Below are positions 10,145-36,875 of a stretch of DNA of 36,875 bases, in pieces. The first letter of the stretch is position 1; every line of letters starts with the position of its first letter. Origin of the DNA: a virus (taxonomy: Duplodnaviria > Heunggongvirae > Uroviricota > Caudoviricetes); the IMG/VR virus record IMGVR_UViG_2721755724_000003; one strand, written 5' to 3'. The notes beneath the pieces were generated by a model that was not told the origin of the DNA, made no database searches, and saw only the letters and a program-made list of their open reading frames with translations. The position numbers and the translations under genes were made by a program.

Positions 10145-10717
10145 TCAGGGAGATTTATTGCTCTTATTTGCCGGAAATTTTCGATAAATGGTAGAAACGC
10201 CTACATCAAAAATCAGTGCAATACGCTGTCTTGATTCTCCGGCCTCGAGTAAACGTCCAATCTGTGCCCACTGTTCAGTGGTCAACTTAGGACGGCGTCC
10301 ACCTACTCTGCCTTTAGCACGAGCTGCAGCCAGCCCTGCCCGGGTACGTTCAACTATCAGTTCGCGTTCCATTTCAGCCAGGGCACCCATGACATGAAAA
10401 AAGAAACGGCCCATTGGGGTACTGGTATCAATACTGTCAGTCAGGCTTCGGAAATTCACACCACGCTGGCGCAACTCTTCTATCAGCGTAACAAGATGCC
10501 GCATACTGCGCCCCAACCTGTCCAGCTTCCAGACAACCAGCGTGTCTCCTGCCAATAGTGTCCTGAGCAGTTTTTTAAGCCCCGGTCTGTCGGACTTAGT
10601 GCCACTGATTTTGTCCTCAAAAATCCGCTCACATCCCGCGCAGTTCAGCGCATTACGTTGCAAATCGGTGTTCTGGTCATTTGTTGACACGCGTACATAG
10701 CCAATAAGCATGATCAT
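10145..10717 (-). CDS. serine DNA invertase (Hin/Gin/Cin/Pin family)
   Basis: 190 aa; N-terminal GYVRVSTNDQ catalytic-serine motif, VVWKLDRLGRS, and C-terminal HTH; very close to Hin/Gin as I recall them. Confidence 0.9.
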   Translation of the reverse strand: MIMLIGYVRVSTNDQNTDLQRNALNCAGCERIFEDKISGTKSDRPGLKKLLRTLLAGDTLVVWKLDRLGRSMRHLVTLIEELRQRGVNFRSLTDSIDTSTPMGRFFFHVMGALAEMERELIVERTRAGLAAARAKGRVGGRRPKLTTEQWAQIGRLLEAGESRQRIALIFDVGVSTIYRKFPANKSNKSP

Positions 10718-18665: not shown

Positions 18666-19316
18666 TCAGCGGCTGTCATTGCGCAGTCTGCGCTCCAGCT
18701 GCTGTTTGTCTTTTTTCACGCCACAGCGGGGATCAAGCTGTAACGCATGGTTGAGATGATTAAGGGCGGAAGCCGGATTGCTTTCACTCAGGACAGCGCC
18801 AATCGCTTTATGCAGACGCGCCCGTGACTGGTCCGGCATATCCAGACCGTCTGTCAGCTCCAGCGTCTGCAACAACAGATCGGCATCAAAGCCGGTGGCG
18901 GCAAGCATTGCGCTCTGCGCGGCGTCTGCCATTTCCTCTGCCAGCACGGTCTGCACGTTGCGGTTACCCAGCGGCATCACCCAGCCATGACGCAGGGCAT
19001 GACGCCCGATCTCCAGCGCCCCGGCATAATCTCCGGCATCAATGCGCCACAGCATCACGTACATCAGCACGTCATCCTGTTGAGCGCCTCCGGCAGCCAG
19101 GACACCCTCTGCCCAGGCGGCGTACTTCGGCAGCAGCTCCACCTTGATTTCCGCTTTTTTGACCGTGGACTGAACGCCCTTGAGACGGCGGCGGTCTTCC
19201 GCCAGTTGCAGCAGCATCAGGTCATAGCCCGATGCGTGGCGAACACTGCCGCCCTCGCGGGCGGCCTGTTCAGCCTGAACGCGCAGGCGATGCTGCCGTG
19301 CGGGACTCAGGCTCAT
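18666..19316 (-). CDS. M: terminase small (endonuclease) subunit (P2 gpM-like)
   Basis: 216-aa ORF downstream of the capsid gene; P2 synteny. Confidence 0.8.
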   Translation of the reverse strand: MSLSPARQHRLRVQAEQAAREGGSVRHASGYDLMLLQLAEDRRRLKGVQSTVKKAEIKVELLPKYAAWAEGVLAAGGAQQDDVLMYVMLWRIDAGDYAGALEIGRHALRHGWVMPLGNRNVQTVLAEEMADAAQSAMLAATGFDADLLLQTLELTDGLDMPDQSRARLHKAIGAVLSESNPASALNHLNHALQLDPRCGVKKDKQQLERRLRNDSR

Positions 19317-21370: not shown

Positions 21371-23137
21371 ATGAACACCACACTGACACCCGCAGATCTC
21401 GATCCCCGTCGGCAGGCCATGCTGCTGTACTTTCAGGGATACCGCGTAGCCCGCATTGCTGAAATGCTGGGCGAGAAAGTTGCAACCGTTCACAGCTGGA
21501 AAAAACGCGACAAGTGGGGTGACTATGGGCCGCTGGATCAGATGCAGCTCACCACCGCCGCACGCTATTGCCAGCTCATTATGAAGGAGCACAAAGAAGG
21601 GAAAGATTTCAAAGAAATTGACCTGCTGGCACGCCAGTCGGAGCGCCACGCGCGGATCGGCAAGTTTAACAATGGCGGCAACGAAGCCGACTTAAACCCT
21701 AACGTCGCCAACCGCAACAAAGGGCCGCGCCGTCAGCCGGAAAAGAATGTTTTCACCGATGAACAGATTGAGAAGCTGGAAGAAATCTTCCATTCCTCCA
21801 TGTTCAACTACCAGCGCCACTGGTGGGAAGCTGGAAAAACCAACCGCATCCGTAATCTGCTGAAGTCACGCCAGATCGGCGCGACCTTTTACTTTGCCCG
21901 TGAAGCCCTGATTGACGCCCTGCTTACCGGACGTAACCAGATTTTCCTTTCTGCCAGTAAGGCACAGGCTCACGTCTTTAAGCAATACATCATCGACTTC
22001 GCCAAAGAAGTCGAGGTGGAGCTGAAAGGCGATCCGATGGTGCTTCCTAACGGGGCCACGCTTTACTTCCTCGGCACCAATGCCCGCACTGCCCAGAGTT
22101 ATCACGGCAACCTGTATCTGGATGAATATTTCTGGATACCGAAATTCCAGGAGCTGCGCAAAGTGGCTTCCGGTATGGCTATTCACAAAAAATGGCGACA
22201 AACCTATTTTTCCACGCCATCCAGCCTGACACACAGTGCTTATCCGTTCTGGTCTGGTGCGCTGTTCAACCGTGGGCGCAACAAAGCCGATAAGGTGGAC
22301 ATCGACCTGTCCCACAGCAATCTGGCCCCCGGCCTGCTGTGCGCAGACGGGCAATACCGCCAGATAGTCACCGTGGAAGATGCAGTGCGCGGCGGATGTA
22401 ACCTTTTCGACCTCGATCAGTTGCGCATGGAGTACAGCCCGGACGAATACCAGAACCTGCTGATGTGCGAGTTTGTGGACGATCTCGCGTCCGTGTTCCC
22501 GCTCAGCGAGCTGCAGGCGTGCATGGTGGACAGTTGGGAAGTCTGGAGCGACTTTCATGCACTGGCCCTGCGCCCGTTTGGCTGGCGCGAAGTGTGGATC
22601 GGTTATGACCCGGCAAAAGGTACGCAGAACGGCGACAGCGCCGGATGCGTGGTGGTGGCACCGCCAGCCGTGCCAGGCGGTAAGTTTCGCATTCTTGAAC
22701 GTCACCAGTGGCGCGGGATGGACTTCCGCGCCCAGGCTGACGCCATCAAAAAACTGACCGAACAGTACAACGTGACATACATCGGTATCGACTCAACCGG
22801 CGTCGGTCACGGGGTTTACGAGAACGTGAAAGCGTTTTTTCCTGCCGTCCGGGAGTTTGTCTACAACCCCAACGTTAAAAACGCCCTGGTACTCAAGGCC
22901 TACGACATTATTAGCCACCGCCGCCTGGAGTTTGACGCAGGGCACACCGACATAGCGCAGTCCTTTATGGCAATCCGTCGCGCCACCACTGCCAGCGGCA
23001 ACCGCCCGACCTATGAAGCCAGCCGCAGCGAAGAAGCCAGCCACGCCGATCTGGCCTGGGCAACAATGCACGCACTGTTTAATGAACCGCTGCAGGGCGA
23101 GTCCGCCAATACCAGCAATATTGTGGAGATTTTTTGA
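21371..23137 (+). CDS. P: terminase large (ATPase) subunit (P2 gpP-like)
   Basis: 588-aa ORF divergent from O; P2 gpP is about 590 aa. Confidence 0.85.
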   Translation: MNTTLTPADLDPRRQAMLLYFQGYRVARIAEMLGEKVATVHSWKKRDKWGDYGPLDQMQLTTAARYCQLIMKEHKEGKDFKEIDLLARQSERHARIGKFNNGGNEADLNPNVANRNKGPRRQPEKNVFTDEQIEKLEEIFHSSMFNYQRHWWEAGKTNRIRNLLKSRQIGATFYFAREALIDALLTGRNQIFLSASKAQAHVFKQYIIDFAKEVEVELKGDPMVLPNGATLYFLGTNARTAQSYHGNLYLDEYFWIPKFQELRKVASGMAIHKKWRQTYFSTPSSLTHSAYPFWSGALFNRGRNKADKVDIDLSHSNLAPGLLCADGQYRQIVTVEDAVRGGCNLFDLDQLRMEYSPDEYQNLLMCEFVDDLASVFPLSELQACMVDSWEVWSDFHALALRPFGWREVWIGYDPAKGTQNGDSAGCVVVAPPAVPGGKFRILERHQWRGMDFRAQADAIKKLTEQYNVTYIGIDSTGVGHGVYENVKAFFPAVREFVYNPNVKNALVLKAYDIISHRRLEFDAGHTDIAQSFMAIRRATTASGNRPTYEASRSEEASHADLAWATMHALFNEPLQGESANTSNIVEIF

Positions 23138-24162
23138 TGGGAAAGAGTAAGAAAAACCGCGCTGCGGCGACGAATCAGCTCAAGCATAAAAGCCAAACTT
23201 CAGCCGAAGCATTCAGCTTTGGCGATCCCGTTCCTGTTATGGACCGCCGTGAACTGCTGGACTATGTGGAATGCGTACAGATGGATCGCTGGTATGAGCC
23301 GCCCGTCAGCTTTGACGGACTGGCACGAACCTTCCGCGCCGCCGTGCATCACAGCTCACCAATTGCGGTGAAATGCAACATTCTGACCAGTACCTACATC
23401 CCTCACCCGCTGCTCAGCCAGCAGGCTTTTTCACGTTTTGTGCAGGACTATCTGGTATTTGGTAACGCCTACCTGGAGAAACGCACGAACCGCTTCGGTG
23501 AAGTTATCGCCCTTGAGCCTGCTCTGGCAAAATACACCCGACGCGGGTTAGACCTGGATACCTACTGGTTTGTGCAATACGGTATGACAACCCAGCCGTA
23601 TCAGTTCACGAAAGGCAGCATTTTTCATCTGATGGAACCTGACATCAACCAGGAGATCTACGGCCTACCAGGTTATCTTTCTGCCATTCCGTCAGCCCTG
23701 CTCAACGAGTCCGCCACGCTGTTCCGCCGGAAGTATTACATTAACGGCAGCCATGCAGGCTTCATCATGTACATGACCGATGCCGCGCAGAACCAGGAGG
23801 ATGTGAACAACCTCCGCAATGCGATGAAAAGCGCCAAAGGCCCTGGCAACTTCCGCAACCTGTTTATGTACTCGCCTAACGGCAAAAAGGACGGGCTTCA
23901 GATCATCCCGTTGTCAGAAGTCGCGGCGAAGGATGAATTTCTGAACATCAAGAACGTCAGCCGTGATGACATGATGGCAGCACACCGCGTACCGCCTCAG
24001 ATGATGGGAATTTTGCCGAATAATGTTGGGGGTTTTGGTGATGTGGAGAAGGCGAGCTGCGTCTTCGTAAGAAATGAACTATTACCACTTCAAAAAAGAT
24101 TCATGGAAATAAACAGATGGCTTGGTCATGAAATTATAAATTTTGAAATATATACATTATAA
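23134..24162 (+). CDS. Q: portal protein (P2 gpQ-like)
   Basis: 342-aa ORF overlapping the P stop (ATGA); P2 gpQ is about 344 aa. Confidence 0.85.
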   Translation: MMGKSKKNRAAATNQLKHKSQTSAEAFSFGDPVPVMDRRELLDYVECVQMDRWYEPPVSFDGLARTFRAAVHHSSPIAVKCNILTSTYIPHPLLSQQAFSRFVQDYLVFGNAYLEKRTNRFGEVIALEPALAKYTRRGLDLDTYWFVQYGMTTQPYQFTKGSIFHLMEPDINQEIYGLPGYLSAIPSALLNESATLFRRKYYINGSHAGFIMYMTDAAQNQEDVNNLRNAMKSAKGPGNFRNLFMYSPNGKKDGLQIIPLSEVAAKDEFLNIKNVSRDDMMAAHRVPPQMMGILPNNVGGFGDVEKASCVFVRNELLPLQKRFMEINRWLGHEIINFEIYTL

Positions 24163-24167
24163 AACCC

Positions 24168-24190
24168 AACGGCATCACAATGATGCCGTT
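24168..24190 (-). terminator. hairpin terminator between convergent Q and the PIN-like cargo gene
   Basis: Perfect inverted repeat aacggcatca / tgatgccgtt; on the minus strand it is followed by a T-rich run (gggttttata). Confidence 0.5.
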
Positions 24191-24199
24191 ATGAACGAA

Positions 24200-25261
24200 T
24201 TAATATTCAAAATTATTTTCTTCAATAGAGAACTCAATCCCTCGGGATAACTTATCAATATTCACATCAAATGCGATATCTGTTAATTCACCATCCTCGA
24301 TTTCATACATAACTTCAATTTCAATATCGAAACTAATCTCTTGAACTTCAGTTCGTGTGGTTGTCTCCATTGGAATCATTACTTTATCTTCGCTATCCCA
24401 ATACCCATTATTAAAGTCTGGACCAGAAACAGTAACTTCAAAATCTACAGAAACAGAGAAGGTCGCTAGACAATAATTATTGTCAATCTTAATTATTGAT
24501 GGTTCAAAGTCATCAATATTGACGACTTCAAATGAATCCAATTCAGCGTCTTCCCAAGTTGAAACGTTATATCCATCGGCATCATTGAGTTGGGCAATTA
24601 CGTCCGCTCTTATGTCTTCACGTTTGCTTTCGATAAACTGCATCAATTTATTACTTAATTCGTTTGTATGCGTATTGTATTCACCTAGAAACTTATCAAG
24701 TGAATCAATTTGATGAAGATTGTTTTTACCATCACAATAATTTTTTAAGTCACTATCCTCAGAAATGATATACACATCTTCATCATTAACAAATCGCTCT
24801 ACCGCAGCTAAAGTGATTGCATCAGGAAACTCACTTTTTTTCTTATTTTGCCCAAATGGTGGTTCTTTGCCAAAGTATTTATCTAAAACCTCATTAAGAT
24901 CTATCACTTCTATTGTAGCTAATTTGGCGTGACATCCTTTCAAAAAATCATCAAAAACTTTTTGTGCTGCTTCGTGAATTTCATGTTCGTTAAATTGCTG
25001 AAAAAAACCATGGAGCGGTCCATTATCAATACTATTCAAAAGCCTAGCTTTTCTTTGTACTGTGTTTATAGCCTGCAGAGCATCCTTTATTGATTCCTCT
25101 ATTTTACCTTTTACTTCTCTCTCTACAACTGTAGTTGTAATTAAGACTAAATCACCTTTCGCACATAATTCATGGAAAGCTTTAAATGCTACCCCCTCAA
25201 AATGAAGACCAGCCTTTACGTACGTTTGTGTGTCAATAAATACCTTATTTGTTTTAAGCAT
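24200..25261 (-). CDS. unassigned cargo protein, PIN-like N-terminal domain plus acidic C-terminal domain
   Basis: 353 aa, AT-rich; N-terminus carries PIN-like acidic positions (VFIDTQTY, LITTTVVEREV, YIISEDSDL); the C-terminal 130 aa or so are strongly Asp/Glu-rich. Confidence 0.55.
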   Translation of the reverse strand: MLKTNKVFIDTQTYVKAGLHFEGVAFKAFHELCAKGDLVLITTTVVEREVKGKIEESIKDALQAINTVQRKARLLNSIDNGPLHGFFQQFNEHEIHEAAQKVFDDFLKGCHAKLATIEVIDLNEVLDKYFGKEPPFGQNKKKSEFPDAITLAAVERFVNDEDVYIISEDSDLKNYCDGKNNLHQIDSLDKFLGEYNTHTNELSNKLMQFIESKREDIRADVIAQLNDADGYNVSTWEDAELDSFEVVNIDDFEPSIIKIDNNYCLATFSVSVDFEVTVSGPDFNNGYWDSEDKVMIPMETTTRTEVQEISFDIEIEVMYEIEDGELTDIAFDVNIDKLSRGIEFSIEENNFEY

Positions 25262-25387
25262 ACTAATCCTAATAAGTTTTAAGATCCGCTACAATTGTTT
25301 ATGTTTATTTTTTATCAATAATCATACGTAGTTAAGATTATCCATGTCGAAAAATTAAATCAACTTCAATTTATCCTTAAGCGCGCG

Positions 25388-25406
25388 CTCGTATCCCCGC
25401 CACGCC
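25388..25406 (-). other. candidate cos (cohesive end) site
   Basis: Minus strand reads GGCGTGGCGGGGATACGAG; the first 13 nt match my recollection of the 186/P2 cohesive end (GGCGTGGCGGGGAAAGCAT), and the orientation relative to Q is as in P2. Confidence 0.5.
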
Positions 25407-25728
25407 TGCCCGCTTTATGTAGTGGTTTTCATGCACCTGCATGTTCTACGTAAAAGCCCGCTAGTTCTGGCGAGCCTTAGCAAAAACGATCCTTAAACGA
25501 TCATGCGATTTCATGCAGCATAGTCATGCACTGTCTAAGAGAAGTGAAAGTCCGTATCTGAATGACCACTTGAAAAACGAAACATACAGACTTACAAAGA
25601 TGAAGCTCTACTGTGAGCGAGGAACATACATAGTTGCTCTGTAATAGCCAAATTTTAAGCAGGAAATCTCTTTTTTATGACAAAACTATAAAGAAAAACA
25701 GACCGTTTCATCGCTCGATGAAACTATA

Positions 25729-27306
25729 CTACAATACTTTTCTCTCGATGGTATTTTTAATGGTCAACATATCTTTAGGAATACTTTTTTTCCCCTCTAT
25801 ACGTATGGTAAACACAAAAAGAATAACGGCTGATCTCACAATTTTCATGAGTTGTAAGAGCTGTTTCTCAAACTTTTCTTTCTCAATAAATCTCACCTCA
25901 TCAAAAAATCCATAAGAATTATATAAATCAACTAACATGTCTTTCTCGTGAATAACTAACAGTTTATGTTCTAAATCATTCCTCCATTCTTTAAAAAAAG
26001 CAAGCTCACCATTTTTATCATTCAAATCCATAGCAATACTAAACAAACCCAGCAATCCTTTATTATTTATTTTGTTTATTTTAAGCTTTCTTTTTTCATC
26101 ACTAATCCGCCAGAAGTTATGAAAGTATATATGTCCTCTATCTGGTTTTAAATCAAATAATTGACACAGAGCAACTGCTATTTTATCCAAGATACCAAAG
26201 CAAGCTCTAAATGCAACCCTTAACTTCTCAACATTTTCATACAATATTTCTCCATTATACAATTCAGAATAACATACCTCCGAATCCTCATCAAAAAACT
26301 CACTATCAACCTTATATTCAAAAAACATTTTTCGTGCTAAGGAATACTCAGCTTTAAGTCTATTTAACACCATTTCCATTGGCACTATAAAATCACCAAA
26401 CACACCTTCCTCGGTGGTCGCAATAGTTATATTATCTTTAGATGACGCATAACAATTGCAATATAGCGAATGATCAGACAACATTAGATTATTATCTATA
26501 CAAAACCTCTGGTAGTTTGATAAAGTATCATACTCCTCCTGCGTGAGCCTTTCATCTGTACTTATATCCTCTATGCCATATACACATGATTCACTCAATA
26601 TACTTTCGTTGTACTTTATTTTTCTTTGAAGAGCAACCTTCCATGAAGGAAAACATTTCCCTGACTTTATTGCACACTCATAACCTCGAATAACTTCTTT
26701 AATCATTTTATATGTATATGTTGTAGATAATTCATTAAGCAATTCTAATGCCTCAGATCTGTTTACCCACGCCTGAGGAATTGAGTTATCAATAGATATT
26801 GCTTGTTCATAATAATCCATTGATTCAGATATACGATATTGTTTTTTTAATACATTAGCTAGATTAACTATTAAATCAGGGGGCACCCATCCATCTTCTT
26901 GTGAAAGTTTAAACGCTTTCCAGTAATTATTTTTTACATCATTCAGCTTAATGAAACTATCAATATCTGCATTGTCATTAGGATTAAAATCAAGAACTGC
27001 GCTCATTCCATTTGCCAAGTTATAGTAATATAAAGATTCTTTCATTATAGTCAGAAATTCATTTTTATTGTTTATAAAGATATTTAAGCCTTCCTCCGCT
27101 ATATTTTTTACATTACTAAAATTTCCGATATCAATAAGATTTCCGGCCAAATTAGATAATATAATTATTCTATTTTCTTTGATTGTATTTATCTCATCGA
27201 TACCGTTAAGAATATCCTTTACATTTTTATAGGCAGAATCAAATGAACCTGCATTAATAAGATCATCTACGAACCCCATTTTTGAAACAACATAGTTGAT
27301 ATCCAT
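25729..27306 (-). CDS. unassigned cargo protein, TPR-like N-terminal region plus C-terminal HEPN-motif region
   Basis: 525 aa, AT-rich; TPR-like stretch (YYEQAISIDNSIPQAWVNRSEALELL) and C-terminal EWRNDLEHKLLVIHE matching the HEPN Rx4-6H signature. Confidence 0.55.
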   Translation of the reverse strand: MDINYVVSKMGFVDDLINAGSFDSAYKNVKDILNGIDEINTIKENRIIILSNLAGNLIDIGNFSNVKNIAEEGLNIFINNKNEFLTIMKESLYYYNLANGMSAVLDFNPNDNADIDSFIKLNDVKNNYWKAFKLSQEDGWVPPDLIVNLANVLKKQYRISESMDYYEQAISIDNSIPQAWVNRSEALELLNELSTTYTYKMIKEVIRGYECAIKSGKCFPSWKVALQRKIKYNESILSESCVYGIEDISTDERLTQEEYDTLSNYQRFCIDNNLMLSDHSLYCNCYASSKDNITIATTEEGVFGDFIVPMEMVLNRLKAEYSLARKMFFEYKVDSEFFDEDSEVCYSELYNGEILYENVEKLRVAFRACFGILDKIAVALCQLFDLKPDRGHIYFHNFWRISDEKRKLKINKINNKGLLGLFSIAMDLNDKNGELAFFKEWRNDLEHKLLVIHEKDMLVDLYNSYGFFDEVRFIEKEKFEKQLLQLMKIVRSAVILFVFTIRIEGKKSIPKDMLTIKNTIERKVL

Positions 27307-27593
27307 TCAATCCTCTTTAAACTAAGCTAATAATACCAATCATTATATGGATGAGATCAATATAGAACATGCCATCTCCGGCAAAAATCGTACTACATCA
27401 GACCAGTGCCCTTCAAATAATATAAATTGAACTTAGATACTTCTGCTTCAACCAGTGTGTTAAATCCATCGCTTGAACTCAGAACAAAAAGCGGACGATC
27501 ACTTATCAAAATGGCCGTCCACCTAACGCCTCGTTTCACTCGTTGCCCAAAATAGTCCCCCATCAGAATGAATCCTCTTGGGGGCAACGTTTC

Positions 27594-27827
27594 TTAATGC
27601 AGCCAGCTGTCGTCTTCCCACACCTTCTGCATAATTTTCATCACTTGCTTCCTTTCTTCGTCCAGTTGCAGTCCGGTTAGTTCCACACCGTTAGAGCTAC
27701 CTTTGCGAATGCGAATTACCGTTTTGGGATACAGGGGGCACAGATTGCGGTAAAGCTCGGATTCAAGGGCGTCCAGGGTAGACTGGCTAATCTTCTGCTC
27801 TTTATCGATCACTATTTCAATGCGCAT
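27594..27827 (-). CDS. DinI-family protein (Tum C-terminal-domain-like)
   Basis: Start placed at ATG 27827; from MRIEIVIDKEQ..., which resembles the N-terminus and C-terminal WED/W motif of E. coli DinI. Confidence 0.7.
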   Translation of the reverse strand: MRIEIVIDKEQKISQSTLDALESELYRNLCPLYPKTVIRIRKGSSNGVELTGLQLDEERKQVMKIMQKVWEDDSWLH

Positions 27828-28179: not shown

Positions 28180-30594
28180 TTAATACAGGTTCCGCCACTT
28201 ATCATCTTCCCGCAAACACTGGTTCCGATAGAAGATACGCAAGCCTGCTCCTGACGGAATACTGCCGCCGCGAAGGAGTAAATCGACCTCTTTCTCGCTA
28301 CCATCAAATCCTCTGGACTTCAGCTCATAGACGAGCTGCAGTCGCTGATGGTCTGTAATTCGCTGTTTGTAGTCTTTACGCCGTTTCGGTTTCACCAGGC
28401 GTAACCTTGCAGCCAGTTCCCGGCGCTCTTTTTTGTTCATACTGTGCAGGTAATCGTGCAACTCCTTGTCATCCATGCTGGTAATGTCCGTTCTGGGGTC
28501 CCCATCAGCTGATTTATCTTTCTCCTGTTGGTTCAAATTTTCAGCAAGGGGACAGTTATTGCCACGAGTCCAAGGGGCGCAAGCGCCCTGGTCGGCTGCC
28601 GCCTCCTGAATGTCAACGGCCTTACGAACCATTTTCCACTTCACGGCATGAGTGCAGATCTTGCCCTCTGCAATAGGTGACCAGATGCCATAAATACGAA
28701 TGCCGTGATCGCCATAGGCGGTCGGCTCTTCGTTGATTTCATAAGCAGTTCTGATGAGGTGATATTTGCGGGGAACCAGTACGCCGCCCTGCTTCATGAT
28801 GTAGGTGGCAAAACAACCAGCATCAGCAGCAGCCAGGATTGCATCAAGGCGCGGGTTATCCAGTACCGGCGCACCTGCTTTTTTGTCCCCCTGTTGCCTT
28901 GCCGCCTGACCAGCCAGCAATCGCAGTTCACGGTAAGCCTGACGCCCCGGAATGCCAAAGAAGCGGAATTGCTGAACACGATGCAGAGACGCCCAGGCAT
29001 TAACGTATTCAGCATTATCACGCAGGGATTTCCCCGTTTCCTTGCTGATCTCGCCAGCCAGACCACGCCCGTCAATGTTCTTACTGATGTATTTCGCGAT
29101 GTAGCTTGTTGGCGTACCTTTGCGCGGGTTAATCAACTCAGACTTAAAGCGCGGTCCAGTGTTATTGCCCAGCTCCTCGCGGTCTTCACGGATGGCAAAC
29201 TTACGCAGTAATGCAGTGATGGCGCGGCGGTCTTTTTTGCGCATAAAACACAACAGGTGCCAGTGAACTGTACCGTCATGATGCGGCTCAGCCACCCGCA
29301 CGCCATACCAGCGCAATCCGGCTTTGTGCATCGCCTTACGAAATGCAGCAAACATGCCGACCAGATAATCACTACTTTGTCTTACCGTCGCATTTGTCCA
29401 GGTTGGGTTGGGCCTGCCGTTATTTAGCGTGGAATGGAAACGTGACGGACAGGTGATGGTGTAGAAAACGGCGCAGTCACCGCGCATTTCCGCGATAAGC
29501 TCCAGACCTTTAACACAGGCCATCATCTCATTGCGGCGATGCGCAGGGTTGCTGCTGCTGGCGTTTACCACATCCTCCATGTCCAGCGTGTCGCCGTCTT
29601 CGTTCACCAGTTCATGAGAACGGAAAAACTCCAGCGACTTACGGCGCTGCTCACGTTTATGCATCACGGCTTCATAGCTGACATAAGGAGATGCTTTTTT
29701 GCTAACCAGGCAGACAGCGCGCAACTGCTCTTCCCGCCATTCGCAACGCATCTTCCATAATTTCCGATACCACCAGTCAGCGCACAACATACGCGCCAGC
29801 GAACCCGGAATGAGTTCATAGGGCACGGGTTTACGGCGGTTTCTTTTCCGGCGGAGTTGCTCAAACGCAGGCGGGATGACATCCAGACGCAGGGTTTCCG
29901 CTGCCACCTTTTCCCATGTATTGCGGATTTCTTCTGGCTTAACGTCATCGGTGACATACAAATCGCCACAAGCTACATCAAGGCACATGCTCATATGCGC
30001 AGCGACAAGGGTAGACAAGCGTTTCACCTGATCCTGACTCATTTCAGGCAGGATCAGCAGGCCGTCCAGCCCTTCATGGCTTGCCATAAAGCGAAAAGAA
30101 GTGGATAGCTGACTGTCGCGTACATGCTCCAGTCGTTCCAGACATGGCTTAATCGTCTCACGCAAATAGCGGGAATAAGCCTTTGGCCTGCCCAGGCTGC
30201 TGAAGTATTCAATACGTTGCATCAGCGGCTTGCTGATATGGGAAGGCTGGGCATTGACGTCCGCCAGAATGACCATGTCCGGGTTAAAACGCTGCTGCTC
30301 ATGCGCCAGCTTTGCCCGACTAATGAGCTTATCCTGCTCCATTTCGCGCTGGACAGGATCACGGGATTCATTAAAGAAATAACGCTCCCAGACCTGATCA
30401 CTCAGCGCCTCACGGCGCAGCTGTTCCTGCTCGTTATCGGCAGCGTACAGAGTGATCAGATTTGAAAGCGCAGAAACCGGCGCAACTTCCGCCGGGTCCA
30501 GATAAGGGTTAATGGCCTTTTTCGGGCTGTTCCATGAGAATGCTGCGGCGACCTCGTTAAAGCCGCTAGAGTTGCTCATATCGTCATGACTCAT
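28180..30594 (-). CDS. A: replication initiation endonuclease (P2 gpA-like rolling-circle initiator)
   Basis: 804-aa ORF with a YIAKYISK-type tyrosine motif; position matches A of P2/186. Confidence 0.85.
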
Positions 30595-31448
30595 ACACGC
30601 ACCTCGTACACAGCAGAACTATCCACGCCACGCGAAGGATCAAATCCCACCCAGCAGCGCGCCCCAGAAACAGCAATGATTTCTGTTGCAGATTTACTCT
30701 CGCCAGCCGACACGCCGATGCTGCGTTTTGCCTTGATGTAGTGGTGAGTAAAATTGCGATACAGCGAACGGATCAGGGATGTGTCACTGTTAGAAACAAT
30801 GACCGGATGTCCTTCTGATGACCGATGTTCAAGAACAGATGCCAGGTGATACTGGTCATCTTCAGTGAAGCCGTCAGTGTGATAGCCGGAAAACGTACCG
30901 TCATACGGCGGATCGCAATACACCACATCCCCCGCCTTCAACATCGCCAGCGTTTCATCAAAGCTGGCGCAGATAAACGTTGCTCGCTGGGCCTTTTCTG
31001 CAAATGCGCGAATTTCTTTTTCAGGGAAATACGGATTTTTATAATTACCGTAGGGAATGTTGAAATGCCCGCTCTTGTTATAGCGACATAAACCACGGTA
31101 ACCGTGACGATTGAGATACAGGAAATATACCGCTTTCATGAAATCAGTAATTTCAGTTGAGTAATTAAACTCCTGCCTTATGTTGTAATAAGCCACCTCC
31201 CTGTTTGCTTCCTCAAATAAAGCTCTGGCGCGAGATATAAACGATTCACAATCAGCGGCAACCTTTTTATAGAGGTTGATTAAATCAGGATTAATATCCG
31301 CAACCAGATAGCTGGGATAATCCGTCTCCATCATCACAGCACAGGAACCCGCGAAAGGTTCAACCAGTCGCGGGCCAGCAGGAAGATGTTTTTTCAGTTC
31401 GGACATTATGGCAGTTTTATTTCCCGCCCATTTCAGGATGGTGCTCAT
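30591..31448 (-). CDS. dam: DNA adenine methyltransferase (Dam-like, N6-adenine)
   Basis: Start placed at ATG 31448 ([11 protein letters not shown]...), overlapping the upstream stop as ATGA; ILKWAGNK and DPPY motifs characteristic of Dam-family methyltransferases. Confidence 0.8.
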
Positions 31449-31672
31449 ACAGCACCTCCGTTGTAATGTTTGCCTTTCAGCTCTGCGATTTCCTGACAGG
31501 TAATGCAAAGCTGCACACCCGGAATGGCACGGCGACGTGCTGGCGGAATTGGCGCTTCACACTCAATGCAAAGCACGCGGGACACGCCCGGTGTTTTGGC
31601 GCGGGCAGCACGGATATGACGCTGGCGTTCTTCTTCAACGCGCTGCTGTACGAGATCCATTGCATCAGCCAT
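31445..31672 (-). CDS. TraR/DksA-family C4 zinc-finger protein
   Basis: 75 aa with CIECEAPIP...CITCQ four-cysteine zinc-finger pattern. Confidence 0.7.
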   Translation of the reverse strand: MADAMDLVQQRVEEERQRHIRAARAKTPGVSRVLCIECEAPIPPARRRAIPGVQLCITCQEIAELKGKHYNGGAV

Positions 31673-33499: not shown

Positions 33500-33624
33500 G
33501 ATGCAACATTCCTCTTTTAGCAATGATTAATCAGGATGAATACTGATCGTTTGTATTATGTGAACACTGCAAACATACGATCACATCATGAAATCGTCAA
33601 GGTAAAAGTTCACTTGGAGTGACC

Positions 33625-34188
33625 ATGAATTTGGAAAAAGGCGGTCGTGGGGCCATAGAGCGCATGGTTGAAGCCTATGGTTTCAAGACAAGACAAGCTT
33701 TGTGTGATCATTTGGGCATTTCTAAAAGCACCTTAGCCACGCGCTATATGCGTGATTCATTCCCGGCAGAATGGGTAATCCAATGTGCACTTGAAACCGG
33801 CACGTCGCTAGAGTGGCTAACTACTGGGCAAGGTTCAAAAGAAAGTTCACAAAAAGAAAACACAAAAGAGATCGAAAGGAAGATTTTATCAAGCGGAAAA
33901 CTACTTCCTGATGGTTACTACATTTTCGACAACAACTTTTTGCCTGAAAAACTAAAAAAACCTTTTGTTGTGATCGATGGCGCATCAGAGTTTATCTGTG
34001 ATTCGGATTATGAGGATGTACGTGATGGTAAGTGGATCGTTGATATTGATGGCGAGGTTGCTATCAGGAATCTGACAAGACTGCCGGGACGTCGTCTAAA
34101 TGTCGATGGCGGCAGCAGTTCCTTTGAATGCAAAATAGATGAAATTGATATCATAGGAAAAATTAGAAGCGCGATCGTCAATTATTAA
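33625..34188 (+). CDS. cI: 186-type CI immunity repressor
   Basis: About 187 aa with an N-terminal HTH ([20 protein letters not shown]) and a C-terminal domain; start at ATG 33625 with GGAG upstream (the ORF track opens at GTG 33619). Confidence 0.75.
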
Positions 34189-34397: not shown

Positions 34398-34408
34398 GGT
34401 TGCTTCAT

Positions 34409-35740
34409 ATGAATAATGATATGACTTTTGAAAACAGAGATGAGTATAATAGAAAAATCATTGCTGAAAAAATAATAAGCTTACTCGAGTCCCCCTTAAA
34501 AATATCCCCTATTGTTATCGATGGGGACTGGGGTACCGGTAAAACCGAATTTTCAAAAAAATTAGCGGCATTGATTGAAAAAAATGAATCTGGGCATAAA
34601 GTAGTATATATTGATGCATTTACTGAAGATCATAATGATGCTCCCATACTTACTATAATGGCTGCAATAGTTGCATTATATCCAGAGAGTGAAAAGAAGG
34701 AATTAATATCAAAGGCATTACCAGCATTGAGATTTGGACTTAAAACTGTACTCAAAGCTGGCGCTGGGTGGATTTTAAAACAAAATGCAGATGATATTGC
34801 GGATGAATTCGAAGATGCTATTAAAGATGCGGCTAACTCAGCTATAGATGGTACTGTAGAAGCACTGCTTGATGATCATATTGAAGCAAAGAAACATTTG
34901 CTTGCTCTCAAGGAAGTACTTGCTGAACTAACTAGCGAAAATAAAATAACAATTATCATTGACGAACTTGACCGTTGTAAACCAAGCTTTGCCATCTCTA
35001 TCATCGAAAATATAAAACATGTTTTTGACACTGAAAATCTTAACTTCTTGTTAGTTGCTAACATCTCACAATTGAAAGCATCAATAAATCATATTTACGG
35101 TGCAGGTGTTGACTCAGAAAGATATCTTGATAAATTTATAAAATTCACTTACAGCCTGCCAGTGACTTTCACTGAAAACAATTACGATAAAATTTTGGCT
35201 TCGAACTCTCATTTTAGAATGCTATGTAACGAGTCTGAAAGACTAAAAGAAATTGGAGAAAGTAGTATTCATATAGTTCAAAAATTTATCGAACTAAAAG
35301 GCTTGTCGCTACGGGAAGTTGAAACCTTATCAAGATATCTAGAAATTTATCAAATTTTATCTCAAAATGAAATCAGCAATAAATTTATACCAGGCTATTG
35401 CTGTTATCGAACCCTTGCAGTAATTCTTTATTCGTTTGGTCGTGAACTGGCCCTTAACTACGTAGAAGATAAAATAGATGCACAATTAATAATCAATTTC
35501 TTCGGTGTTAATAGACTCCCATATCAGACAGATCAATATAACATCAACATCTACTATTATGCATTATTTGGTATAACTTATAAATATATGCCAGAAGGTT
35601 CTCCTTTACTTCCTTCTGAAAACGATGAAAAAAACAGATGGGCTGAAATAAGTGATTATCATATTTTAAAAGGAAATGCAGGTGTAGAAGACCCTGTTAG
35701 AATATTCAAAAACACCTTAAAAGTTTTCTTGCTCCAATGA
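34409..35740 (+). CDS. KAP-family P-loop NTPase
   Basis: Walker A GDWGTGKT, a YIDAF motif after it (KAP proteins have NAW-like motifs there) and Walker B IIIDELDRC; AT-rich; sits between cI and int. Confidence 0.7.
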   Translation: MNNDMTFENRDEYNRKIIAEKIISLLESPLKISPIVIDGDWGTGKTEFSKKLAALIEKNESGHKVVYIDAFTEDHNDAPILTIMAAIVALYPESEKKELISKALPALRFGLKTVLKAGAGWILKQNADDIADEFEDAIKDAANSAIDGTVEALLDDHIEAKKHLLALKEVLAELTSENKITIIIDELDRCKPSFAISIIENIKHVFDTENLNFLLVANISQLKASINHIYGAGVDSERYLDKFIKFTYSLPVTFTENNYDKILASNSHFRMLCNESERLKEIGESSIHIVQKFIELKGLSLREVETLSRYLEIYQILSQNEISNKFIPGYCCYRTLAVILYSFGRELALNYVEDKIDAQLIINFFGVNRLPYQTDQYNINIYYYALFGITYKYMPEGSPLLPSENDEKNRWAEISDYHILKGNAGVEDPVRIFKNTLKVFLLQ

Positions 35741-35822: not shown

Positions 35823-36875
35823 ATGGCAGTACGAAAACTCAACACAGGTAAATGGATTTGTGAATGCTACCCCGCCGGGCGCAATGGGCGGCGTGTGCGT
35901 AAGCAGTTTGCAACTAAGGGTGAAGCATTGGCTTTTGAGCGTCACACGATGGAAGAAACCGGAGCAAAACCCTGGCTGGGTGAATCAGTGGATCGTCGAA
36001 CACTGAAAGACGTGGTTGAGCTATGGTTCAAACTACATGGTAAATCTCTGACGGCTGGGCAGCATGTCTATGACAAATTGCTGTTGATGGTTGACGCTCT
36101 GGGAAATCCCATTGCAACCGATCTCACCTCTAAAATGTTTGCCCACTATCGAGATAAACGCCTGACAGGAGAGATCTACTTCAGCGAAAAATGGAAGAAA
36201 GGAGCAAGCCCGGTCACCGTTAACCTGGAGCAAAGCTATCTAAGTAGTGTTTTTAGCGAACTATCCCGCTTGGGCGAATGGTCGTATCAGAACCCACTGG
36301 AGAACATGCGAAAATTCACCATCGCAGAAAAAGAGATGGCATGGCTTACCCATGAACAGATTGTTGAATTGCTGGCTGATTGCAAACGTCAGGACCCAAT
36401 TCTGGCACTGGTAGTCAAGATATGCTTAAGCACAGGCGCACGCTGGCGAGAAGCAATAAATCTTACCCGTTCACAGGTGACTAAATACCGAATTACCTTT
36501 GTCAGAACGAAGGGGAAGAAAAACAGAAGCATTCCCATCAGTAAAGAGCTTTACGAAGAGATCATGGCACTTGATGGGTTCAATTTCTTTACAGACTGCT
36601 ATTTTCAATTTTTATCCGTGATGGAAAAAACGTCTATCGTGCTCCCTCGCGGTCAACTGACACACGTTCTGCGTCATACGTTTGCGGCGCATTTTATGAT
36701 GTCGGGTGGAAACATCCTGGCCTTACAAAAAATTCTCGGGCATCACGATATAAAAATGACGATGCGTTACGCACATCTGGCACCGGATCATCTGGAAACG
36801 GCGCTCCGTTTCAATCCTCTTGCAACGCTGCCAAGTGGCGACAAAGTGGCGGCAGCGGTTGGCATTACCCCGTAA
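35823..36875 (+). CDS. int: tyrosine integrase (P2/186 Int-like)
   Basis: 350 aa with C-terminal HxxR and RYAHL catalytic-tyrosine motifs; the att core repeat lies in its last codons; the stop is the final triplet of the window. Confidence 0.85.
   Translation: MAVRKLNTGKWICECYPAGRNGRRVRKQFATKGEALAFERHTMEETGAKPWLGESVDRRTLKDVVELWFKLHGKSLTAGQHVYDKLLLMVDALGNPIATDLTSKMFAHYRDKRLTGEIYFSEKWKKGASPVTVNLEQSYLSSVFSELSRLGEWSYQNPLENMRKFTIAEKEMAWLTHEQIVELLADCKRQDPILALVVKICLSTGARWREAINLTRSQVTKYRITFVRTKGKKNRSIPISKELYEEIMALDGFNFFTDCYFQFLSVMEKTSIVLPRGQLTHVLRHTFAAHFMMSGGNILALQKILGHHDIKMTMRYAHLAPDHLETALRFNPLATLPSGDKVAAAVGITP
36836..36857. repeat. att core direct repeat, int-proximal junction
   Basis: TGGCGACAAAGTGGCGGCAGCG within the last codons of int; pairs with the 2834-2855 copy. 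Confidence 0.6.

Follow-up and report, generated by a model that had tools for sequence, protein, structure and literature searches.

Genes and Modules of the Locus

The window, i.e., the whole stretch of 36,875 nucleotides analysed here (IMG/VR record IMGVR_UViG_2721755724_000003), carries P2-like backbone genes, which around the region of interest follow the order P, Q, cargo, predicted cos, cargo, DinI and A. The large terminase subunit, the P2 P homologue and the enzyme expected to cut cos, is encoded at 21371..23137 on the plus strand; it was assigned from the annotation of relatives and is named "terminase ATPase subunit" in E. coli M8, Fels-2 and Klebsiella relatives. The adjacent portal gene, a homologue of P2 Q (23134..24162, plus strand; Pfam Phage_portal), marks the left arm; P2, 186 and Fels-2 have their genes in the same order. 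The small terminase subunit, homologous to P2 M and expected to recognise cos, was found at 18666..19316 on the minus strand (PF05944 Phage_term_smal, E=2.2e-40). The first conserved backbone gene of the right arm is a DinI/Tum-like gene (27594..27827, minus strand; Pfam DinI, E=5e-22), with coordinates according to PGAP and taken from M8. It is followed by the gene for the replication endonuclease, the P2 A homologue (28180..30594, minus strand), also annotated in relatives and 96-98% identical to the A homologues in related loci. Both terminase subunits, portal, capsid, scaffold, tail, lysis, CI and integrase are all encoded by full-length ORFs in the window. Between CI and int the window carries a KAP NTPase, whereas M8 has a DUF4041 gene in this place. 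On this ground, and with its gene A annotated as frameshifted, M8 was rejected as the origin of the window.

The left-end cargo module (24163..25380, minus strand) extends from the Q stop codon to a conserved block described below. It encodes a protein of 353 aa (24200..25261, minus strand), which PGAP names "PIN domain-containing protein" and which matches Pfam PF16289 (PIN_12) over the full length of the profile (residues 7-171, E=1.5e-25). Between the convergent Q and PIN genes there is a hairpin with an 11-bp stem followed by a T-run (24167..24191), likely a bidirectional terminator. A promoter-like sequence, TCGACA-18-TATGAT, was recorded by consensus scan with 10 of 12 matches between cos and the PIN start (25321..25350, minus strand). 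It is given as a suggestion only, since the scan returned 17 sites in the region against 17.7 expected in shuffled sequence. Promoter and terminator calls throughout this work are pattern matches only.

The right-end cargo module (25532..27583, minus strand) reaches from the block to the conserved DinI-proximal DNA. Its gene (25729..27306, minus strand) encodes a TPR and LA2681-like HEPN protein of 525 aa, "LA2681 family HEPN domain-containing protein" according to PGAP, with a PF18733 match at residues 309-504 (E=1.8e-38) and weak TPR matches. The sequence RNDLEH at residues 442-447 is an Rx4H motif, a form of the Rx4-6H motif of the HEPN superfamily. A terminator-like hairpin, GTTTCATCG-AG-CGATGAAAC with a T-rich tail, lies 4 nt past the stop codon (25705..25724, minus strand), so that each of the two low-G+C modules has such a hairpin of its own. 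A small ORF at 27393-27587 was considered as a third cargo gene and rejected, as it crosses the boundary at 27583/27584, has no family match and is unannotated by PGAP. The PIN protein had no PADLOC or NCBIfam match, and for the HEPN protein these searches gave nothing beyond a weak TPR match; neither protein can therefore be assigned to a named defence system. By domain content, i.e., PIN_12 in one and TPR plus HEPN with Rx4H in the other, both genes are defence-like.

The Conserved Block and the Predicted Cohesive End

The two modules are separated by a block of 151 bp (25381..25531, minus strand), the sole conserved DNA between them, delimited by per-base conservation in 53 distinct loci of related prophages from different species, by the extent of blastn matches and by G+C content. 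Conservation among the 53 loci falls to background no more than 1-2 nt past both edges. Homology to 83-91 phage records in blastn was limited to this stretch, and within 24163-27593 most of 1276 E. coli genomes matched nothing but the block. Its G+C content is 52%, compared with 53% in the backbone and 33 and 32% in the left and right modules, respectively. The block comprises 7 bp on the left-end side, a 19-mer, and 125 bp on the right-end side.

The first-pass annotation had pointed to this 19-mer on the minus strand at 25388-25406, inside a 467-bp spacer between the cargo ORFs, as having its first 13 nt in common with the cohesive end of 186 and P2. The spacer is present at 25262-25728, and the 19-mer was confirmed; the plus strand reads CTCGTATCCCCGCCACGCC and the minus strand GGCGTGGCGGGGATACGAG, the latter being the predicted 19-nt 5' cohesive end by homology to annotated ones. 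It equals the 186 cohesive end in the first 13 nt and at 15 of 19 positions overall, and matches P2 and P4 at 14 of 19 positions each. The site exceeds what chance would produce: the 13-mer GGCGTGGCGGGGA occurs once in the window, where all other matches have two mismatches, and 0.76 matches with up to two mismatches are expected by chance. Among the 53 relatives 32 carry the exact 19-mer and most of the others differ at position 13 only, and the 19-mer with its immediate flanks is the most invariant part of the block (94-100% conserved). Salmonella phage SEN8 has the same 19-mer, labelled there as cos, and it is carried by Fels-2 as well.

The records of P2, P4, 186 and PSP3 start at, and annotate, the cohesive end. 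The site aligns with the cos sites of these four phages column for column, flanks included. The equivalent of the 55-bp P2-family cos core (25381..25435, minus strand) consists of TGCATGAAAACC...AAAGCGGGCA, the 19-mer and CGCGCGC, and its alignment is free of gaps, with 44/55 positions identical in 186, 43/55 in P4 and 42/55 in P2. The earlier suggestion of a cos-like site is thus borne out by homology. The predicted nicks, placed according to the 186 annotation, lie between 25407 and 25406 on the minus strand and between 25387 and 25388 on the plus strand. These positions are an extrapolation, since at four of the six positions from 14 to 19 the cohesive end does not agree with P2 and 186 (TACGAG in the window, AAGCAC in P2, AAGCAT in 186). 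The searchable literature yielded no virion-end mapping for any phage with the exact 19-mer; for the 19-mer and Fels-2-type ends it yielded the SEN8 announcement and a sister paper, both with cos assigned by annotation. A PhageTerm result for Serratia BZS1 concerns a different overhang.

Several elements were recognised on the right-end side of the block. Three direct (T)GCATGA repeats on the minus strand (25524-25530, 25511-25517 and 25501-25506), spaced by 13 and 11 nt, are candidates for recognition by the terminase; the 55-bp core opens with a fourth copy (25429-25435), and CATGCA is found at 25438-25443. Read on the plus strand, these are the TCATGC repeats at 25501-06, 25511-16 and 25524-29, with the further copy at 25429-34. 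There are five TGCATGA copies in the 36.9-kb window, three of them on the same strand within 102 bp here. The copies are 91-100% conserved in the 53 loci and present in P2, P4 and 186, and a TGCAT-N6-GCAT pair occupies the same aligned place in P2, P4, 186 and PSP3. A second repeat, AAACGATC, occurs at 25484-91 and 25495-502. Its conserved cores are two GATC (Dam) sites 11 bp apart (25499-25502 and 25488-25491), with the GATC bases 94-98% conserved in the 53 loci versus 42-55% for the bases between; the pair is absent from P2, P4, 186 and PSP3 in the alignment. Both sets of repeats had been reported in the first pass and proposed as possible terminase recognition elements, a proposal that has partial support, TGCATGA being conserved as a whole and AAACGATC only in its GATC cores.

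Direct reading of the sequence also revealed a G+C-rich hairpin, GCTCGCC-AGAACTA-GCGGGC followed by TTTT (25452..25475, minus strand), which resembles a terminator and would stop transcripts that run toward cos from the A/DinI/cargo side. A simple terminator scan did not pick up this hairpin. Its arms are 92-98% conserved in the 53 loci, and P4, 186, PSP3 and Fels-2 have a G+C-rich inverted repeat of different sequence at the same aligned position. The window carries rare substitutions at 25473 and 25462 (2-4% of relatives), by which the stem is weakened. They are probably tolerated, since they are common to all HEPN-bearing relatives examined.

Cargo Modules in Related Prophages

Comparison with related prophages supported the earlier claim that cargo has been inserted on both sides of cos. 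In the cargo-free relatives L031 and L016, an unrelated stretch of approximately 170-180 nt is found between Q and the block. On the other side, 81 nt separate the block from DinI where cargo is lacking. The right module is absent in locus L093, where the block is followed by approximately 68 nt and then by DNA equivalent to 27584 onward. Cargo between Q and cos, in an interval of at least 600 bp, was recorded in 45 of the 53 relatives, and the backbone genes are 93-100% identical among relatives while the cargo differs. Thirteen IMG/VR loci encode the PIN gene or a relative, in every case between cos and Q, and in the 10 near-identical ones the PIN start is 145 nt after the 19-mer. Relatives of the HEPN gene at 81-83% identity were found outside P2-like contexts (L107 and L108).

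The two cargo genes were hardly ever found together. Among the 44 complete E. coli genomes with either gene, 34 had PIN only, nine HEPN only and one both. The left module and the block were common to the window and 34 E. coli genomes that differ beyond 25531, and the right module and the block to nine that differ left of 25381. Ten IMG/VR contigs carried PIN without HEPN and three HEPN without PIN, while in the 16 P2-like loci of IMG/VR that encode either gene or a relative the two never occurred together. Across cos, the partners of each cargo gene vary or are absent in the relatives compared. The comparison shows what appear to be two sub-hotspots, Q-to-cos and cos-to-DinI, assorting independently. 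Judged by this distribution, the PIN and TPR-HEPN genes are unrelated, separately swapped single-gene modules and not one system.

Every HEPN-bearing relative examined (six other elements) has a block 100% identical to that of the window. In PIN-bearing relatives the block differs from it at 9-18 sites, none of them below 25420, while the left module of the window matches the PIN-bearing relatives. The crossover is thereby confined to 25381-25419, the interval containing the 19-nt cohesive end. Since the block variants beyond the nick on the right go together with the cargo on that side, the exchange point is placed in the cos core. By this comparison, the arrangement in the window is shown to be an apparent rare recombinant with its exchange point inside the invariant core. 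Homologous recombination in this core would fit the data. They would also fit a joining of the left end of one phage to the right end of another through shared cohesive or terminase-cut ends, as might happen during co-infection or co-induction. If such end joining takes place, cos would be a quasi-site-specific shuffling point for defence cargo located at the ends.

Interpretation and Alternatives

We consider 25381-25531 very probably to be cos in a Fels-2-type (Felsduovirus-like) prophage of the P2 family that is apparently intact. It follows that the two defence-like genes would sit at opposite ends of the packaged DNA, and the earlier placing of PIN at the left and TPR-HEPN at the right of virion DNA is upheld as far as the cos call by homology reaches. 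After induction, the excised circular genome would be recognised by the terminase (18666-19316 together with 21371-23137), by analogy with P2 and 186. Recognition would proceed via approximately 125 bp on the right-arm side, comprising the four (T)GCATGA elements, the two GATC sites and the G+C-rich hairpin. In P2, approximately 125 bp is sufficient for cos function. Nicking at the two predicted positions, staggered by 19 nt, would produce linear DNA with the 5' ends GGCGTGGCGGGGATACGAG. The distance to the virion end would then be 145 nt for the PIN start codon (left end) and 322 nt for the HEPN stop codon (right end), the two genes being neighbours only in the circular or prophage form.

A decayed, non-functional cos of a defective prophage would deprive the opposite ends of any physical meaning. 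Some relatives are indeed clearly degraded, such as E. coli E2, in which D and terminase genes beside the same PIN module are truncated. Gene A of M8 is annotated as frameshifted, and the hairpin in the window has its two rare substitutions. Yet A in the window is an intact ORF of 804 aa, the structural, terminase, lysis, CI and integrase genes are full-length, and all invariant positions of the block are kept in a sequence shared without a difference by six other HEPN-bearing elements, which makes a relic improbable. The block might also be conserved for some role other than packaging, as a regulatory RNA, an origin or a promoter/terminator unit, with an incidental 19-mer. It does hold a terminator-like hairpin, and the P2 old-tin promoter lies in the equivalent region. 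A scan of 24100-27700 against Rfam at E up to 1 returned no RNA family, and the block is therefore not accounted for by a known non-coding RNA; moreover, the 19-mer and flanks, 94-100% conserved, fall where the cohesive ends are annotated in four reference phages, and the origins of P2 and 186 are annotated inside gene A. We give this explanation next to no credence.

With the block taken as cos, the PIN and TPR-HEPN genes could still form one two-gene system, a nuclease or toxin-antitoxin-like pair that straddles cos, with the site serving as a switch by which the pair is split on packaging. They are adjacent and co-directional, and both are predicted RNase-type nucleases, a kind frequent in conflict systems. 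This pairing is very improbable in view of the single genome among 44 with both genes and the lack of any IMG/VR contig carrying both. The variable or missing partners across cos, the terminator-like hairpin after each gene with another in the block between, and the HEPN relatives in DNA without P2-like context also speak against it.

The reading of the block as cos leaves the current understanding of P2-family biology unchanged, and its consequences are of a practical kind. By homology, cos can be placed to the base in the window prophage and in many Fels-2-type prophages, and cosmids or phage-delivery vectors of the clade should be able to use the 151-bp unit, bounded by conservation, as their packaging signal. 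The retention of exactly this length between unrelated cargo in 53 species supports such a use indirectly. In mining for defence systems, the Q-to-A interval is best divided at cos. A gene on one side is no candidate for an operon or system shared with a gene on the other, and counts of whole-interval "arrangements" would represent combinations of two independent loci. The PIN and HEPN genes can each be cloned and tested alone.

Comparison with Known cos Sites and Hotspots

The 55-bp cos core of the P2 family goes back to Ziermann and Calendar (1990), as cited in PMC5694545 and PMC9594776. The window agrees with P2, 186 and P4 in a 19-nt cohesive end starting with GGCG(A/T)GGCGGGGA, in the flanks TGCATxAAAACC...AAGxGGGC before and GCGCGC after it, in the upstream TGCAT pair, and in the location of cos between portal gene Q and replication gene A, which is where every P2-family phage has it. 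Unlike in these phages, the Fels-2-type block has its specific GATC pair and T-tailed hairpin. The distance from cos to Q is approximately 170-180 nt without any gene in P2, 186 and PSP3, whereas the window has a module of 1.2 kb. Closer counterparts are SEN8 (NC_047753, PMC5427200) and Fels-2 (NC_010463), with the same 19-mer and blocks approximately 92% identical, and Escherichia phage Cartapus (OV696611), with a block approximately 82% identical and a homologous 59-bp cos annotated; the cos annotations of SEN8 and Cartapus are themselves homology-based ("putative"). These phages also have genes between cos and the portal gene, i.e., a hypothetical protein and an HNH endonuclease in SEN8, the 565-aa STM2723.1 in Fels-2 and a DUF4145 protein in Cartapus, which differ from the cargo genes of the window. 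The left-end hotspot of satellite P4 (gop-beta-cII) is likewise on the PIN side of cos, its cargo starting approximately 230 nt in from the left cohesive end, but P4 has no portal gene and carries the core gene psu, not cargo, at its right end.

Cargo flanking cos is ordinary for this phage group and already present in the literature (PMC5694545; PMC9122126). The idea of a "cosL-to-Q" hotspot is found in PMC5694545, which cites Dodd and Egan (1996) and Nakayama (1999), and the cos-adjacent gpA-gpQ defence hotspot of P2-like prophages was described by Rousset et al. (2022; PMC9122126) and in NAR 2026 (PMC13586616). The window resembles this hotspot in having variable, low-G+C, defence-like genes beside cos that are swapped between near-identical backbones, and differs in that the PADLOC models of known systems match neither cargo gene. 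In the hotspot surveys, Q-to-A is taken as one locus, with arrangements counted over its whole length, while our data contain two sub-loci split by the 151-bp block. We tentatively suggest, as a possibility at somewhat unfavourable odds, that the gpA-gpQ hotspot as such may consist of two independently assorting cassette positions, one at each end of virion DNA, with the cos core as their exchange point.

Prophage organization

A P2-family prophage, inverted relative to the standard P2 map, fills nearly the whole window. The host gene ybjL (935-2620) is followed by D, tail, lysis and head genes, the small terminase (18666-19316, minus strand), the large terminase (21371-23137, plus strand) and the portal gene (23134-24162, plus strand), after which comes the cos and cargo region. 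Beyond it lie DinI (27594-27827, minus strand), the replication gene A (28180-30594, minus strand), an adjoining Dam-type adenine methylase gene of the D12 class (30591-31508; PF02086, E=1e-77), CI (33619-34188) and the integrase (35823-36875). The nearest phage records are Fels-2-type Peduoviridae from Klebsiella, Escherichia and Salmonella, with approximately 95% identity across the backbone. A serine recombinase/invertase gene (10145-10717, minus strand; Resolvase and HTH_7, E=1e-52) adjoins the tail-fibre and tail-fibre-assembly genes, which suggests a host-range switch of the Gin/Hin type. The interval between CI and integrase is a third cargo position, holding a KAP-family P-loop NTPase in the window (34400-35740, plus strand; PF07693, E=4e-51) and a DUF4041 protein in E. 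coli M8; the window is thus distinct from M8, and this locus also swaps independently.

Identity and extent of the probable cos site

The first-pass annotation had placed a cos-like site between a PIN-like and a TPR-HEPN cargo gene, and its sequence observations were reproduced. The spacer measures 467 bp (25262-25728), the 19-mer GGCGTGGCGGGGATACGAG lies on the minus strand at 25388-25406, and the 13-mer in common with phage 186 occurs only once in the window. Both copies of AAACGATC and all three of TCATGC were found, together with a fourth TCATGC at 25429-25434. Circular junctions were rebuilt for P2, P4, 186, PSP3, SEN8 and Fels-2 and aligned with the reverse complement of the window; the linear records of P2, P4, 186 and PSP3 start at the annotated cohesive end. 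The match to the cos of P2, 186, P4 and PSP3 was column for column across the core, which reads, in order, TGCATxAAAACC, 12 variable bases, AAGxGGGCx, the 19-mer and xGCGCGC. Compared with the 55-bp cos core, which passages in later papers credit to Ziermann and Calendar (PMC5694545, PMC9594776), positions 25381-25435 were identical at 44 bases for 186, 43 for P4 and 42 for P2, while the 19-mer itself shares 15 of its 19 bases with 186 and 14 with P2. In all seven aligned sequences the right arm also has, some 95-120 nt further in, two TGCAT motifs one helical turn apart. An identical 19-mer is annotated as "putative cos site" in the SEN8 record and called cos in the SEN8 genome announcement (PMC5427200), and a homologous 59-bp cos is annotated in the Cartapus record. 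Judged by this alignment, the site is very probably a cos, as had been proposed; it belongs to the P2 family and is of the Fels-2 type. It is an ordinary one, with cos already annotated in relatives and the hotspot around it already known.

A scan with the portal protein, limited to one genome per species, gave 53 distinct cos regions, from which per-base conservation was calculated in window coordinates. Conservation climbs within one or two bases of either edge of 25381-25531 and stays at background level outside. The block so delimited is 151 bp long: the 19-mer has 7 bp on its left and 125 bp on its right. Blastn searches of the phage records and of 5,426 complete E. coli genomes singled out the same stretch. 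In base composition the block (52% G+C) resembles the backbone (53%), while the DNA on the two sides has 33% and 32%. This definition of the conserved cos unit at base level is a modest addition. Within the 19-mer, position 13 (25394) is the sole freely variable base (A in 33 loci, C in 13, G in six and T in one), the others being 96-100% conserved; cohesive ends unlike at position 13 would pair with a single mismatch.

The short repeats had been suggested as terminase recognition elements, and this fits one kind better than the other. The (T)GCATGA copies, i.e., the TCATGC repeats on the opposite strand, are 91-100% conserved over the 53 loci; TGCATGA is scarce in the window (five copies against approximately 10 expected) and three of the five lie in the block. 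Two GATC sites (25488-25502), exactly 11 bp apart, are 94-98% conserved across the 53 species, whereas the intervening bases vary; constraint is thus limited to the core of the AAACGATC repeat. Between repeats and core lies a G+C-rich hairpin followed by TTTT (25452-25475). No Rfam family matched the block.

Predicted virion ends

Cut positions were carried over from the annotation of 186 ("top strand cut at 5' end, bottom strand at 3' end"). The predicted nicks fall between 25407 and 25406 on the minus strand and between 25387 and 25388 on the plus strand; four of the six bases at positions 14-19 of the 19-mer differ from P2 and 186. The left virion end would then run from 25406 downward, with the PIN_12 gene starting 145 nt in and convergent with the portal gene. 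Toward the right end, the TPR-HEPN gene would be followed by 196 nt of cargo DNA and then, as the terminal segment, by the 125 bp on the recognition side of cos. Provided that cleavage positions are conserved, the two cargo genes would indeed sit at opposite ends of packaged DNA.

Two cargo modules and their exchange

Cargo has been inserted on both sides of cos, as the first reading had it: 1,218 bp (24163-25380) and 2,052 bp (25532-27583) replace the short intervals of cargo-free relatives (L031, L016), which have about 170-180 nt from portal stop to block and 81 nt from block to DinI. Comparison of the hotspot in relatives showed a portal-cos interval of at least 600 bp in 45 of the 53 loci and below 300 bp in the remaining eight; cargo at this position is the norm for the clade. 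The cosL-to-Q position, Q being the portal homologue, has been named a hotspot before (PMC5694545), and the entire A-to-Q interval is treated as a cos-adjacent defence hotspot (PMC9122126, PMC13586616). The left-hand protein matched Pfam PIN_12 (E=1.5e-25), and in the right-hand one weak TPR matches accompany a HEPN domain of the LA2681-like type (E=1.8e-38), which carries an RNDLEH motif. Neither matched a named defence system in PADLOC, and we infer a defence role from location and domains only.

The distribution of the genes points to two systems rather than one. The PIN gene occurred in ten IMG/VR contigs at 98-100% identity, always 145 nt past cos and never with the HEPN gene, the DinI-to-cos distance varying between 207 and about 2,500 nt. 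Three other contigs held the HEPN gene without PIN at approximately 100% identity, with differing cos-to-Q distances, and two HEPN relatives (81-83% identity) lay outside any P2-like context. Among complete E. coli genomes the PIN module was found in 34, homology stopping at about 25531, and the HEPN module in nine, homology stopping at 25381; only strain M8 had both. The sampled partners were, for HEPN, a 554-aa hypothetical protein, a 120-aa hypothetical protein, or DUF262 with IS2, and for PIN, DUF8087, none, or DUF6236. Each cargo gene also has a terminator-like hairpin of its own. These comparisons show the hotspot as two positions that assort independently of each other and meet at the cos core, which is a modest addition to what was known.

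In the block, the window shares 100% identity with M8 and with all six HEPN-bearing relatives examined, and differs from seven PIN-bearing relatives at 9-18 bases, all at or above 25420. Thus, the right-hand 110 bp of cos and the right-hand cargo travel together, which places the crossover within 25381-25419, the 19-mer included. Homologous exchange in the invariant core fits this pattern, and an equally good fit is given by the joining of cohesive or terminase-cut ends of heterologous origin.

Two further observations concern the cargo itself. In E. coli E2 (L115, NZ_CP104509) the same PIN module lies in a degraded prophage remnant, with truncated D and large terminase genes fused beside ogr, so cargo modules can outlive the phage. 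In E. coli DSM 103246 (L112) an IS2 lies within the left-of-cos cargo, beside a DUF262 gene; insertion sequences thus do enter the hotspot.

Comparison with known cos regions

The GATC pair of the block is absent from P2, P4, 186 and PSP3. Cleavage of P1 pac needs Dam methylation of repeated GATC-containing hexamers, and by analogy the pair, together with the D12-class methylase of the prophage's own, might mean methylation-dependent cos recognition. At the position that aligns with the hairpin, P4 (CCGCGCC/GGCGCGG), 186 and PSP3 (CGCCAG/CTGGCG) and the Fels-2 type (GCCCGCCAG/CTGGCGGGC) all have an inverted repeat rich in G+C, whereas the cos region of P2 has no obvious equivalent. Its sequence differs between the phages and the T-run behind it is confined to the Fels-2 type; the repeat could play a structural part in cos instead of serving solely as a terminator. 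Genes between cos and portal are found in Fels-2 (STM2723.1), SEN8 (gp01-02) and Cartapus (a DUF4145 protein), while P2, 186 and PSP3 are gene-free there, and P4 carries gop-beta-cII on that left side of cos.
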